From Microgenomates group bacterium (GTDB taxonomy: Bacteria; Patescibacteriota; Microgenomatia; PFEM01; JBNASD01), in assembly GCA_049720225.1 (NCBI GenBank), contig JBNASD010000001.1:100733-164732 (forward strand): DNA of 64,000 nucleotides, in the 5' to 3' direction. The position numbers were made by a program, and so were the translations under genes. The notes under the pieces were generated by a model. It saw only the letters and a program-made list of their open reading frames with translations, did not search any database and was not told the origin of the DNA. Position 1 is the first letter of the stretch. Each line of letters opens with the position of its first letter. This document shows positions 48,831-56,288 of this stretch, one piece after another.

Positions 48831-49097
48831 TTACCTATTTTTGGCTCTTATTCCTCCTCGATACAAACAGGAATGAGTATCGGCAATTGCTTCTCCAGGC
48901 GGTTTTCCTTTAGAAAAACAGGTTCGACATTTTTGAGCTAATGCTTCGATTACCTTCCCTTCATCATCATGGTGTTGTCCTCTTTGTTTAAGACTACTCA
49001 ATTGAGCTTGATTATCTGGAGTATATCCCATCCGACAATTAAGACAATTTAAATCAAGTTGTTGGGCAAAATCATAATCTGGTTTTATTTCTACCAT
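48831..49097 (-). CDS. Small zinc-ribbon protein (CxxC...CxxC), GC-rich, last gene of the mod-old-res operon
   Basis: Contains 'CLNC' and 'CRTC' Cys pairs. It lies 16 nt downstream of the res stop on the same strand. Confidence 0.45.
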   Translation of the reverse strand: MVEIKPDYDFAQQLDLNCLNCRMGYTPDNQAQLSSLKQRGQHHDDEGKVIEALAQKCRTCFSKGKPPGEAIADTHSCLYRGGIRAKNR

Positions 49098-49113
49098 TTT
49101 TTTAATATCTTCT

Positions 49114-52099: not shown

Positions 52100-53786
52100 T
52101 TAACTCAAATGAAAATAACTTCTTATTTTATTAATACAGTCTATAATTTGCTGAGGTATTTCTTTTTCTAGTAAAGTATTTATCTTTTCTAAAATTTCAT
52201 TTAATCTTTCAGATCCGATCAATTTTTCAAAAGATGTTTCAAACATAAATCTTTGATTTTCACTGCTAAATTCTTTTATCATCTCATCTTTACCTTCATC
52301 TTCTTCATCTTTATCATAGTCATATACTACAAAAAAATCTATTCCATAAATAAGACATATCATCTGATAATAAGGAATGTTCGATTTCCCTCTTGCATAA
52401 ATAATTGTTACTCCATCAAGAGATAAATTTAGTTTTTTTGCTATTTCAATTAAACCGTATTTGTCGTTTGGTCCTTCTAATATAATACATTTATCATCAA
52501 AAAGTATTTGATTATTGTCTCTATAAAAAATTGTTTTATCTTGCTGGTATCTTTTAATTTCATCTAAATGCGCTTCTAAACTTTGTTTTTCTTTGCTAGT
52601 AGATGATTTTTTAAACTGTTTGGATAAATCTTCTGGTCTGGGATAAATATTCTCATCAGTTAATCTTTTAATAGATTTCCAATTACTTAAATCAATAAAA
52701 ATATCTGAATGAGTACTTAAGATATGCTGATATTGAGAAGATTTAATTTCATTAAATAATTTATATTGTAATTGAGGATGCAAATGTAATTCTGGATCGT
52801 CAATTAAAAAAATAATTTCTTCTTTTGATAACTCACTTGTCAATTTAAGCAAAAAGTAGGCAATCACCATCAATTCACCTGAGGCCATTCTTGATAAAGT
52901 AATAATTTTATCGCCTTCTCTTAAAGAAAAGAAGGCGTCATCAAAAGGTTGTCGTAGATTAAAAAGAGATATTTCAAAATTGGTAAATTTTTCTCCAATG
53001 AAATCTTTAATTTTCTCTTTTAATGGATTTATTATCTTTGATTGTTTCGGGTCTTCAACTTTGTTAATAATAAAAGAGTAAATATCTTCCCATTTATTAA
53101 CATACTCGTTTCTTTTATTTATTTTGTAATCTTTAAAAAATCTCCAATTAAGTTCGTCTAAAATCTTTTGGAATGTCGTAAAATAGCCAGGCCTTAAGTC
53201 CTTATCTCTTTCTTTTGAAAAATAAAAAATCCTAGGAAAATTTTCTAAACTATCTTGTCCATAAACTTCAAGCAATCTTTCTTGAATTTCTTTAAACTTT
53301 TCATCCTTTTTAACCCAATACTCATAATTTCGTGTTTCAGTATTTAGTTGAACTTTAAGTGGTACATAATTCGTAGAAATTAAAGGTGGTTTTAATTCAT
53401 CATACTTTTGGTAGCATTCAGGAATAACAATATGTTTTGTAGTAAAAATTGTGGAAAATGCCTTACCTGGTGCAGATTTCTCGCGGTATTTAGCAACAAA
53501 CTTAATTTTTTTTTGATGGCAATTTTACCCAATCTGCAATTTTTAGAAAGAAGTAATCATCAAATTCAACTTCAATTTCTATCGGTTCTGTGTCAGAATT
53601 AAAGTCATCAGGTTTTATTTTGCTCTCTACAAAAGAAAAATTGGTCGCTAAATTTATCGCTTCTAAAATACTAGTTTTGCCAGTTCCATTTTTACCAACT
53701 AGTGTAGTAAAATTTTCTTCAAACTCAATGATTGTTTCGTTTTTAAACTTTCTAAAATTTTTAATTGTTAATTTTTTAATTCTCAT
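52100..53786 (-). pseudogene. OLD-family ABC-type ATPase + Toprim nuclease gene split by a +1/-1 frameshift at an A9/T9 tract (53506-53514). The N-fragment is 53502..53786, the bridge plus C-fragment 52100..53501.
   Basis: The N-fragment carries Walker A 'GKNGTGKTS'. The downstream frame is open for all 76 codons back to the homopolymer. The C-fragment carries 'SGE' signature-like, Walker B/D-loop 'LIDDPELHLHP', H-loop 'LSTHS' and Toprim 'ILEGPND...VVYDYDKD'. Confidence 0.65.
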
Positions 53787-56288
53787 TTACCACCAAATTA
53801 AAGGTTTAATTAATTTATAATCTAAATCCTTTAAATTTATCTTTTCCCCATCTTCAAATTCTACTTCATCAGCAGTTATTTTCTTTATCCATTTTCCTCT
53901 TAAGTTAGACAAAGTTTCGGCAATGTCTATGTCAGAATAAATTTTTGATAAATCTACTTTGACTTTATTGTTTTTGTAATCAATTTCTAAAGCGTCTAAA
54001 AGTTTTTTGTCTTTCAAGAAAATATATTGCGAATAAGGACTTTCGCCAGGAATTTCAAAAAGCGTTGAATCTTCGTATTTTGCTTTTCTTAAAATATCTT
54101 CGTATTGCTCAAGCTCGTAGTATTTAAAGAAACCGCCGCCTTGCCAATTAATATCTTTTGATAAATGAAATCCTCTGAGTTTATTAATAGCTATAAATTT
54201 TTGATCACCTGCAAGAACTATTTTCATTCTTCCTAATAAACCAAGTTTTTTCTCTTTTTCATCAAACCAAAATTCATTGAAATAATCAGCCATTTCAATA
54301 CCAATCCATTTTCTATTTAATTTTTGAGCCACCGCTAAAGTAGTACCCGAACCAGCAAAATAATCTAATACCAAATCACCTATATCAGTAGTTGATTGAA
54401 TGATTCTTCTTAATAAATTTTCTGGTTTCTGTGTTTTAAACCCTAAACTTTCACTCACCCTTAATTCCGACTGCATAAAAGAGTAAATATCGTTCCAAAC
54501 ATCTCCTATTGGAAATATTTTTTCTTTTATCTCTATTTTCTCTAAAATTAAGTTTCCTTTATTATCATATTTTTCAATAAAAAAATTATAATCTTCTATC
54601 TTTTCAGGACGAGAGCTTTTTGGTTTAGAAATTAAATCAAGCCATCCTATTTTTAACTTAGTTATGTTTCTATTAGGTTTCCACAATTTCTTAAATTTAA
54701 ACTCGTCGTCGATAATACAATGAAAAATAGTATCATGCTGTCTAACATTTTTATCACCAAAACTTTTATAACTAAAAAGTCCTGCTTCTTCATCTTTTGT
54801 AGCATTTGTATTCCAGATTATCTCTGAAGAAATATTAAATAGTTTATTCAGTAAAAGACGCCCATAATAGTTTGCATTCCAATCTAAAGAAATAAAAAAA
54901 CTACTTTTTTTGTTTAGAAAATCTTTCGCTATTTCTAGCCTATTATTTATTAAAGTAAGCCAAGTTGAGTCCTGAAACCTATCTACATAATCAAAGTCAT
55001 CTCCGGTATTATATGGCGGATCAATGTAAATTGTTTGTACTTTTTCGCGGAATTTTGGAAGTATTGTATTTAAAGCTTGATAGTTTTCGCTTTTAATAAG
55101 CCAGCCGTCTAAAGCATTATCTAAATCATCAAATAATCCTAAAATTTCCAGTTCTAAATTTTTAAAATATTTGGTATCAATGGGTAAAAATTGATATTCT
55201 TTTTTAAGCTCCCAGCCAGTTAAAGTTTTTTCAAGAAGATTTTGAGGTTCTTTTTCTATTATTCCTAACTCTTGCCATTCTTTAACTTGTTCTTTCCAGC
55301 CACTTTGTTTTGGCAATTTTTCAATAATTTCCCAGCCGTTTTTCTTGGCGATTCTGTCTAAAGTAATGACATAGTTTGATTTTCTGACAAATTTGGGTTT
55401 ATTCCAGATTTTCACTAATTCATCTTCAAATTGGGCAATAAAATCAATAATTTTGTAGGCAATATCTTTTAAAATCTGGAGTTGATCAATTCTTTCTTTT
55501 GGCCATTCTGCTTCTTCCTCATAAACATATTGATAAAGCCAAAGTTTAAATTGTTCTTTTAAAAATTCTTTAGCGTTTTTGTTGATAAAATAATCAACTT
55601 CTGATTGTTTCTCAAAGATAGAAAAAGCTCTTTCTAAATCTTCATCTTTGATTTTTATGTTTTTCTTTTTCAGTTCTTTTTGAATTTCATCAATTTTAGT
55701 AGTTTTTCTTTTTTTAGAATAAAAAACCTCAAAAACAATTGTTCCATCTTCCCGGACATTTTTTAATTGATAAATTAAACTTCTCTTTTCGTTAGCTTTT
55801 TTGTATTCCAATTTTGAAACATCAAAAAAGAATTTGTAATTATCAAAAGAAACCTCAAGGTTTTTAAAAATTCTATCGGTTTTAACATAATAAAGCATCC
55901 GAGTTTTCCAAAACAAAATAACATCTTTGTCGTCGGTATAAATTTTTTCATAAACACTATAGGAAAATGGAGTTTGATTAAAATAAATAGAACCGCTTTT
56001 GGTGAAATAGCGGTTAAAAAAAGAATAAAGTTTATCAAAAACTTCGTCGCGGAATTTCGGATATTTTTCTAAAGCTTTCTCAATATCTCTTTTAAGTAAT
56101 TCTTCAATCTTTGAGTAATACCTCGATTTTATTCGCATTAAATTAACAAACCCCCCCTCTCCCTCAACTTTTGCCCCAACAAACAAGTCCCTTAAGGCAT
56201 TATAAAATTTTTTCTCTTTAGTCATTTTTGTTGATTTTTTGAATTTTAAATTTTTCTTAATTATATCTAAGAAAGAAAAATATTTCAT
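53787..56288 (-). CDS. mod: Beta-class N6-adenine/N4-cytosine DNA methyltransferase (Type III Mod-like) with an approximately 300-aa uncharacterised N-terminal extension
   Basis: Motif IV '[15 protein letters not shown]' precedes motif I '[15 protein letters not shown]', which is the beta-class order. The stop TAA directly abuts the ATG of the OLD-like gene. Confidence 0.75.

Follow-up and report, generated by a model that had tools for sequence, protein, structure and literature searches.

What is a gene for an OLD-family nuclease doing between the methyltransferase gene (mod) and the restriction gene (res) of a restriction-modification (R-M) operon? The question is raised by a 64-kb stretch of DNA from a Microgenomates group bacterium (contig JBNASD010000001.1; this whole stretch is hereafter called the window), in which positions 48831-56288 of the minus strand were analyzed. 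An earlier interpretation made from the letters alone (the sequence-only reading) had noted that the middle gene of this operon encodes an ABC ATPase joined to a Toprim nuclease domain, and had suggested that it might represent a new class of OLD protein. Based on the comparisons described below, we consider it probable that the gene encodes an autonomous OLD nuclease of the Class 1 type, which is carried as exchangeable cargo in the mod-res interval of Type III systems, an embedding hotspot, and is not an obligate partner of Res.

Five minus-strand open reading frames (ORFs) are present in 48831-56288: mod, two fragments of the OLD gene, res and an ORF of 88 aa. The sequence-only reading had listed four minus-strand genes with gaps of 0-31 nt, and its coordinates and gaps hold; the gene count does not, given that OLD is split and that the 88-aa ORF is unrelated to the system. 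As had also been noticed, the TAA of mod (53789-53787) directly abuts the ATG of OLD (53786), the junction reading TGG TAA ATG with a gap of 0 nt. The spacing is 31 nt from OLD to res and 16 nt from res to the 88-aa ORF. The features of the system are the following.

56288..53787, minus strand: mod, Type III-like beta-class N6/N4 DNA methyltransferase, 833 aa as an ORF
53786..52100, minus strand: OLD gene, ABC ATPase plus Toprim, split by a frameshift; 561 aa after removal of one A
53786..53502, minus strand: OLD fragment 1, 94 aa, which holds Walker A
53275..52100 as listed, with the frame open from ~53524, minus strand: OLD fragment 2, 391 aa (468 aa in the NCBI annotation)
53506..53514, minus strand: A9 homopolymer (T9 on the plus strand), the source of the +1 frameshift
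52313..52504, minus strand: Toprim nuclease core of OLD, with E437 (in LEGPND) and D489-x-D491; Pfam PF20469
52068..49114, minus strand: res, superfamily 2 (SF2) helicase/translocase with a C-terminal PD-(D/E)xK nuclease, 984 aa, Type III-like

The contexts of the four closest relatives of the window's Res (L064-L067; 71-80% identity) were examined, and in each of them genes other than OLD precede res, in the following orders.

L065: Mod, a KAP/AAA_16 NTPase, Fic, Res
L066: Mod, a 508-aa ORF, a 247-aa ORF, NYN, Res
L067: Mod, AAA_14, Fic, Res
L064: DUF3800, Res (the upstream part, including mod, was not captured)

Among these cargo genes, PADLOC identified the Fic of L065 as SoFic (350 bits) and matched the AAA_14 of L067 to PDC-S01 and the DUF3800 of L064 to PDC-M04A, and the cargo gene next to res in L066 encodes an NYN nuclease. 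When the window was compared with L065-L067 by blastn, homology extended through mod to its stop codon (53785-53789) and resumed at the ATG of res (52068-52078), and only the interval between the two genes was replaced. Because mod and res are homologous to their ends and only what lies between them has been swapped, the mod-res interval is, on these alignments, a slot for interchangeable defence cargo, of which OLD is the example in this genome. The genes mod and res are not adjacent, being separated by the 1.7-kb OLD gene in the window and by one to three other genes in L065-L067. Further properties of embedded cargo are evident at these loci: in the window and its relatives the cargo genes are all on the same strand as mod and res and nested between these core genes, the cargo varies from locus to locus, and OLD is also found outside such systems.

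Several loci carry what appear to be scars of cargo exchange. In L065 (5812-5853) and L067 (5754 to ~5825), the first 40-70 nt of res occur a second time, in degenerate form, between the cargo genes, and the same res 5' copy is present in L074, which belongs to the other Type III family described below, at ~5347-5392; the start codon of these duplicated ends is either present or mutated to ATA. L002 contains an AAA_14 gene (1388-2854) with short stretches of R-M genes on either side, namely 24 codons from the end of a window-type mod (1235-1306, 83% identity) and 33 codons from the start of a window-type res (2860-2958, 58% identity), mod and res themselves being absent. Together, the res 5' copies and the L002 arms point to the gain and exchange of cassettes by recombination at the 5' end of res, and the L002 cassette looks as if it had been transferred, or retained, along with its junction arms. 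Upstream of their Fic/SoFic genes, L065 and L067 share an operator-like sequence (AAATGTTGCATTTGTGTAAC...AAAATGT[A/T]ACA; L065:5860-5905, L067:5855-5900), and this similarity suggests a regulatory element that travels with the Fic cassette. In addition, six ORFs without a Pfam match were found in R-M slots, namely those of 508 and 247 aa in L066 (L066:4113-6388), which also had no PADLOC match, those of 350 and 199 aa in L074 (L074:4296-5914) and those of 203 and 296 aa in L063 (L063:9675-11173). By the logic of embedding, all six are candidate defence genes.

The same OLD clade fills, as judged from gene order and protein similarity, the equivalent interval of a second Type III family that is only distantly related to that of the window. 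Twelve metagenomic loci (L001, L050-L058, L061 and L062), with OLD proteins 72-89% identical to that of the window, have a Mod-like gene directly upstream of OLD, the layout being a Mod of ~555-600 aa, a gap of 3-10 nt and an OLD of 554-557 aa. A ResIII helicase was found 3' of OLD in the eight of these loci whose contigs were long enough, and in all but L050 this Res is ~740 aa long and starts 3 nt after OLD. Of 13 upstream ORFs, 11 gave a Pfam match to N6_N4_Mtase and two were short C-terminal fragments, and all nine downstream ORFs matched ResIII; PADLOC assigned the neighbors of OLD in these trios to MTase_III and REase_III. Over the catalytic core, identity between the trio Mods and the window's Mod amounts to 28-41%, and no similarity between the trio Res proteins and the window's Res was detected by tblastn. 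By these comparisons, the trio enzymes belong to a second, shorter Type III family that is distinct from the window's. DNA homology between the window and the trios begins exactly at the ATG of OLD and fades in its 3' part, and no flanks are shared.

The view that OLD physically resides inside an R-M operon, as proposed in the sequence-only reading, is therefore well founded, since the mod-OLD order recurs in 12 other loci, with res following where the contig reaches, and a recurrence of this kind means that the arrangement is more than chance. The synteny check that had been recommended gave the same result for the close OLD clade as a whole (64-89% identity), in which the order mod-OLD-res with gaps of 3-10 nt is found. 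At the lower end of this range, L074 (OLD 65% identical) has the order Mod, OLD, a 350-aa ORF, a 199-aa ORF and Res, and L060 (64%) has a C-terminal fragment of Mod upstream of OLD and a cut-down ResIII ORF of 122 aa downstream; the contig of L059 (71%) was too short to provide a context.

OLD is not confined to intact Type III operons. It is intact beside res remnants of 99 aa in L002 and L003 and of 122 aa in L060, in L063 a Type I system has it between hsdM and hsdS, and it occurs as a lone gene in defence islands (L004-6, P0033, L068-70 and L071-73), where the single-gene relatives have 40-55% identity to it. Searching plasmids with OLD by tblastn produced no match at 1e-10 (phages were outside this search), and a scan of genome contigs with the OLD alignment, using generic Walker A/B peptide patterns, returned distant ABC ATPases only. 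In L068 and L071, in which OLD is 40% identical to that of the window, each OLD gene is followed on the same strand by an unannotated ORF of 400-469 aa (L068:7836-9038; L071:7681-9090), that of L068 having a weak GIY-YIG match, and this ORF could be a partner gene of that branch of OLD.

The assignment of the middle gene to the OLD family, which the sequence-only reading had made, was corroborated by every type of search. Pfam identified AAA_15, AAA_21 and SMC_N on both fragments, the AAA_15 domain being divided into an N-terminal part in fragment 1 and a C-terminal part in fragment 2, and OLD-like_TOPRIM (PF20469, 38.2 bits) on fragment 2. In PADLOC the repaired protein matched AriA (118.3 bits), Old (113.7 bits), GajA (84.7 bits) and AriAB (66 bits), with the AriA match limited to residues 1-364; the hidden Markov model search proposed as a check thus returned OLD-type models. 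An OLD family profile searched against PDB sequences had as its best match the Class 1 OLD of Thermus scotoductus (TsOLD, 6P74; 181.5 bits), with GajA at ~63 bits and AriA at ~42 bits. The structure of the joined protein, whose prediction had also been recommended, was modeled with AlphaFold2 (AF2; pLDDT 80.8, pTM 0.80), and Foldseek again placed this model nearest to 6P74 in a full-length match (E 3e-24, TM 0.59/0.64), GajA being at ~0.5; the identity to TsOLD in the structural alignment is 19%. In an alignment of 24 sequences the invariant OLD columns include G31-N-G-x-G-K37-T, S302-G303, D329..E332, E437, D489 and D491. All 49 invariant family columns are kept in the window OLD, and there are no further stops or shifts. 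An N-terminal ABC ATPase and the C-terminal Toprim Glu and DxD are therefore found on the same (repaired) polypeptide. Intact homologues of 550-570 aa are common in databases.

Four classes of OLD have been described, Class 1 being single genes, Class 2 occurring with the UvrD-like GajB, Class 3 with retrons and Class 4 being PARIS, and none of them is defined by an R-M host (PMC10568477, PMC12392090). By profile and by predicted fold, the repaired OLD is closest to Class 1, with TsOLD, P2 Old and Vc OLD as its characterized members. Its length of 561 aa is in keeping with the 500-600 aa of this class, as is the lack of a Class 2 insert, which was judged through the global PDB and Foldseek scores only. 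It differs from those proteins in that it and its close clade are nested in Type III operons, so that it is not a single gene free of neighboring defence genes, and in that the window gene is frameshifted. With Gabija and PARIS, the window OLD shares the ABC ATPase and Toprim chemistry, the PADLOC matches to AriA and GajA and a helicase-family neighbor, but its scores to them are far below those to Class 1. There is no UvrD-type domain in the cluster or its flanks, the neighbors of OLD being an N6_N4 methyltransferase and a ResIII SF2 protein; that is, in place of the SF1 UvrD-like GajB there is an SF2 helicase-nuclease that is paired with its own Mod. No reverse transcriptase domain was found among the neighbors and no Rfam family in 47500-58000, as would be needed for the retron class. 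Unlike PARIS, in which AriA and AriB are split, the window OLD is a fused protein, its match to AriA is partial and no DUF4435 (AriB-type) Pfam match was returned on either fragment.

The window OLD is also a mosaic. Its residues 1-380 are 81-90% identical to the OLD proteins embedded in trios, and residues 381-561 (linker, Toprim and tail) only 37-61%. This C-terminal half is common only to P0002 (73%), which is on a 1.9-kb contig. Domain exchange or fast evolution could account for the mosaicism, and its comparison with the Mod/Res host rests on two lineages. After DxD, the window OLD has a 4-residue insertion that is common to the Type I-embedded and standalone relatives.

How, then, is the nesting best explained? 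Under the reading that we prefer, of an autonomous nuclease as exchangeable cargo, OLD would be co-transcribed with mod and possibly translationally coupled to it, as we infer from the 0-nt gap, the common strand and the lack of an internal promoter or terminator signal; it would act alone as an ATP-dependent nicking or exonucleolytic Toprim nuclease, by its likeness to characterized Class 1 OLDs, and would add a second line of defence, independent of sequence, that is transferred and expressed together with the R-M system. The proposal of a new OLD class with a Res-type translocase as partner, in which OLD would be a subunit of an obligate Mod-OLD-Res system and the SF2 translocase of Res would take a GajB-like role, has in its favor the trio with 3-10 nt gaps across 12 loci, the co-divergence of OLD and Res in the shorter family (identity correlation 0.60) and the precedent of a helicase partner in Class 2 OLDs (PMC10568477). 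Set against these are that the window's Mod/Res family occurs with non-OLD cargo, that the window OLD is frameshifted when mod and res are intact, that two extra ORFs separate OLD and res in L074, that OLD outlasts the loss of res, stands alone and is also found inside a Type I operon, and that its sequence and fold are like Class 1 and not like GajA. Since Mod and Res occur without OLD, OLD occurs without Mod and Res, and OLD has moved from one Type III family to another, unrelated one with no detectable similarity in Res, we regard an obligate partnership as very unlikely. A guard relationship of the PrrC or PARIS type, in which OLD is held inactive by Mod/Res, or senses the same phage anti-restriction proteins, and is freed as a non-specific nuclease upon inhibition of the Type III system, deserves more weight, though we still think it unlikely. 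It has precedents in PrrC/EcoprrI/T4 Stp, PARIS/Ocr and RloAB in Campylobacter Type I loci; moreover, the best PADLOC match of the ATPase half of OLD is AriA (118.3 bits), OLD is tightly packed (0-10 nt gaps) and better conserved than either of its trio partners, R-M systems of two types harbor it, and its C-terminal half differs sharply between the two Type III contexts when the ATPase half stays at 81-90%. Silencing by Mod/Res cannot, however, be obligatory for a protein that stays intact beside a decayed res or without one and that also occurs alone, the same slot is filled by unrelated cargo, and the characterized Class 1 OLDs (P2 Old and Vc OLD) work without an R-M partner (PMC12392090). 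For the conserved trio in particular, a guard relationship is possible.

Some of our results weigh against the interpretation of OLD as autonomous, exchangeable cargo. Pairwise identities in the shorter Type III family are 82-100% for OLD, 66-100% for Res and 56-100% for Mod, so that OLD is more conserved than its host enzymes and has kept its position through their divergence. So much conservation is not required of a passive passenger and would fit functional coupling, and that one clade occupies the corresponding interval in two unrelated Type III families could be due to selection for the site as well as to a recombination hotspot. Class 1 OLDs are moreover defined as single genes that are not beside other defence genes (PMC10568477), which the position of this locus contradicts. 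Co-transcription and autonomous action of OLD are both what we infer from the gene order and from analogy. Finally, the sample comprised four relatives of the window's Mod/Res family and about eight distinct trio lineages, so the frequencies given here are not population estimates. A bolder combination, that the mod-res junction in bacteria of the Candidate Phyla Radiation (CPR) is a dedicated cassette site where defence genes are swapped by a specific recombination process that duplicates the first 40-70 nt of res, and that a single clade of OLD has come to depend functionally on Type III enzymes as a fifth, R-M-guarded or R-M-loaded OLD class with a host-adapted C-terminal half, strikes us as rather improbable. 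The sequence-only reading had itself stated what would speak against a composite unit, namely that homologous loci show the ATPase-Toprim gene as an independent mobile insertion with its own promoter and no conserved linkage to mod and res; an independent, exchangeable insertion is what was found, whereas its linkage is conserved in the trios and no promoter of its own was identified.

The OLD gene of the window had been counted as one gene, with no mention of a frameshift, but it is not a single ORF. A shift of +1 in the A9 run (53506-53514) divides it and leads to a premature TAA at 53504-53502, and so it is not an intact, translatable gene in this genome as assembled. Deleting one A restores the 561-aa protein, and the repaired peptide PSKKIKF equals the family consensus. 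At this site the relatives, including the 89%-identical L062, read TCA AAA AAG ATT (S-K-K-I), with the tract AAAAAAG (A6), and the window tract differs from theirs by one synonymous G-to-A change and one inserted A. The A9 is the sole A/T run of more than 8 nt in the window, all other runs stopping at exactly 8. Because more than 40 A8/T8 runs in the window sit in intact frames, the assembly is not generally error-prone at homopolymers; a single error or a leaky tract is possible.

We suppose that, in this genome, OLD would be off or strongly reduced through an A8-to-A9 slip, with mod and res remaining intact. A frameshift without loss of function, either because the consensus of the metagenome-assembled genome (MAG) is wrong at this position or because slippage in transcription of the A9 run allows OLD to be made, is quite conceivable, if on balance doubtful. 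In keeping with it, the rest of OLD is free of decay, with its 49 invariant columns kept and no more stops or shifts, a single base gives back the consensus peptide, and a MAG consensus may carry minority or wrong homopolymer lengths. Nine A residues is the length at which slippage by RNA polymerase becomes appreciable, and slippage at poly(A) tracts in AT-rich reduced genomes was reportedly described by Tamas et al. in 2008. On the other side are the >40 A8/T8 runs in intact frames, which show no general homopolymer trouble, and the equally truncated copy in a database contig (P0001, 468 aa), though this is from the same assembly. An evolved phase-variable switch, in which the homopolymer would serve as a contingency locus for OLD in the way that simple repeats do in Type III mod genes, is in our view extremely improbable. 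An A9 run is short for an efficient contingency tract. The frameshift does lie inside a homopolymer, the classical substrate for slipped-strand events, and phase variability is known for Type III mod genes, as in host-adapted pathogens (PMC8259958); yet the tract is absent from all relatives, which have A6 (L062 included), and the run arose from one synonymous G-to-A change and one inserted A. It is this absence that speaks against an evolved switch, and a conserved phase-variation tract was accordingly rejected.

The identification of Mod as a beta-class methyltransferase in the sequence-only reading was upheld by the Pfam match to N6_N4_Mtase at residues 417-669 (125.6 bits) and by an end-to-end match of residues 23-833 to the PADLOC model MTase_III (PDLC03638, 3-816/816; 754.6 bits). 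Residue ~397 of Mod pairs with residue ~97 of the EcoP15I, H. pylori and Mbo45V Mods (Type III Mods in the PDB). The N-terminal extension of ~300 aa to which attention had been drawn is thus, on these alignments, real, and it is a conserved feature of the window's Mod family. The protein consists of a conserved N-terminal region of ~400 aa, a central variable region (~aa 430-720), which is presumed to be the target recognition domain (TRD), and a conserved C-terminus; its identity to the Mods of L065-L067 is 59-83%, with a gap in DNA homology over ~54137-54833. The PADLOC match, the alignment to the PDB Mods and this break in homology agree with a beta-class Type III Mod that has an internal variable target-recognition region. 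Neither the homologues nor the PADLOC model match the first 21 codons of mod (56225-56288). As the alignments with both begin at residue 22-23, the true start is probably M22 at 56225, which would give a protein of 812 aa.

The description of Res as an SF2 helicase with a PD-(D/E)xK nuclease was equally sound, as Pfam detected ResIII at 123-283 (59.6 bits) and the motifs ATGSGKT (Walker A), DEAH, SAT, QSxGRGxR (motif VI) and PD900...D919-x-K921 are invariant, leaving both the SF2 ATPase and the nuclease (D900, D919 and K921) intact. By these motifs it has the composition of a Type III Res, albeit with a weak PADLOC score (REase_III, 69.7 bits). The family is large (>3500 homologues, many of them from Patescibacteria). 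Neither the single sequence nor a 19-sequence profile of Res matched any PDB sequence, and a link to the Res of EcoP15I was thus not obtained by sequence. Because Res has no sequence match to a solved structure and only a weak match to the PADLOC Type III Res, the safe label for the window system is "Type III-like". With EcoP15I and EcoPI it shares the alignment of its beta-class Mod, the SF2 motifs and the C-terminal PD-(D/E)xK of Res, and it differs from them in the separation of mod and res, in the ~300-aa extension of Mod and in the lack of a structure match for Res, that of EcoP15I included.

The embedding of defence genes in this manner has precedents. Same-orientation embedding was reported by Payne et al. 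in 2024 to be common in Hma, BREX, DISARM and Type I R-M systems, and Type III R-M isn't mentioned in the text of that study (bioRxiv 10.1101/2024.01.29.577857). As in those systems, OLD and the other slot cargos are defence genes lodged between the core genes of a system based on DNA modification and oriented like them; they are interchangeable and also found outside their host, and they include matches to the candidate families PDC-S01 and PDC-M04A and to SoFic; the differences are that the slot here is the mod-res junction of Type III-like systems of CPR bacteria and that res 5' scars are present. Among the embedded genes, HEC-04 is a validated ABC-ATPase-Toprim fusion from Hma (bioRxiv 10.1101/2024.01.29.577857), which resembles the window OLD by description and not by sequence comparison. 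An ABC-type ATPase-linked nuclease encoded inside an R-M operon is also seen in PrrC, which sits in EcoprrI, is kept silent by it and is activated by T4 Stp, and in RloAB, a pair of an ABC ATPase and a Toprim/OLD-type nuclease inside a Campylobacter jejuni Type I locus (PMC10802264), to which the OLD between hsdM and hsdS in L063 may be likened. The hosts of both are Type I, however, in contrast to the Type III-like host in the window. Furthermore, PrrC is an anticodon nuclease and not a Toprim protein, and its silencing by the R-M system has been demonstrated, whereas that of the window OLD would be hypothetical; RloAB is split into two genes, in contrast to the fused window OLD. PARIS (AriA/AriB), an OLD relative, is triggered by Ocr. 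An extra third gene in Type III loci has been reported by Murray et al. in 2021, who described a conserved additional SF2 ATPase 5' of mod in some systems (PMC8259958), but the extra gene in the window differs both in product, an OLD nuclease in place of a helicase, and in position, lying between mod and res where theirs precedes mod. In the literature that was searched, which did not cover the ABC-ATPase catalogue of Krishnan et al. 2020, no description was found of OLD between mod and res or of defence-gene embedding for Type III systems.

What is new here is accordingly the Type III host, the CPR lineage, OLD as the cargo and the res 5' scars, embedded defence genes as such being already known. 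The embedding principle of Hma, BREX, DISARM and Type I systems would thereby be extended to Type III, where it can be used for mining new defence genes; in L066 and L074 alone, the slot holds four ORFs without annotation. In CPR bacteria, CRISPR-Cas is largely missing and defence relies on restriction-modification. Type III-like operons that carry an exchangeable second line of defence would allow immunity to be stacked in one transcription unit in very small genomes. The mod-OLD-res trio offers a compact, clonable test case for the activation of a Class 1 OLD and for its cooperation with, or backup of, restriction enzymes, and the duplicated res 5' ends provide a handle on cassette swapping.

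Two further features adjoin the operon.

49097..48831, minus strand: 88-aa CxxC...CxxC ORF, judged to be outside the system
56377..56405, minus strand: sigma-70-like promoter match upstream of mod (TTGGCA-17-TAAAAT; 10/12 match, weak)

The 88-aa ORF, which carries two CxxC pairs, had been counted as a fourth, zinc-ribbon member of the operon, and this proposal was rejected. Its sole match among 5.8 billion proteins was itself, and it had no Pfam, PADLOC or NCBIfam match (the NCBIfam search gave sub-threshold matches only, and none for either Res or this ORF). Its GC content is 0.371, compared with 0.26-0.28 for mod, OLD and res, a composition foreign to the operon. It was absent 3' of res in every relative examined, with no tblastn match in any related locus. 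The ORF sits between res and a block of glycosyltransferase/O-antigen-ligase genes (44871-48808). An ORF that is likewise of 88 aa follows OLD in L004-L006, but its kinship to that of the window was rejected as there was no tblastn and no Pfam match.

In the promoter and terminator scan, the counts were no higher than in shuffles, so that an internal promoter is neither supported nor excluded. A repeat search of 48500-56700 found no direct or inverted repeats flanking OLD, the matches being just low-complexity AT-rich sequence, and so nothing in the window hints at insertion in the manner of a transposon. Just upstream of mod lies a 141-aa ORF without a family match (56573-56998, minus strand), and near the same end a staphylococcal-nuclease-like gene is in divergent orientation (57005-57691, plus strand). 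A tRNA scan found none in or adjoining the island. The window as a whole has 16 tRNA genes, with dense arrays in 3590-8696 (for example, three in 3590-3818 and six in 8209-8696), a content that is consistent with a chromosomal context in a small genome.

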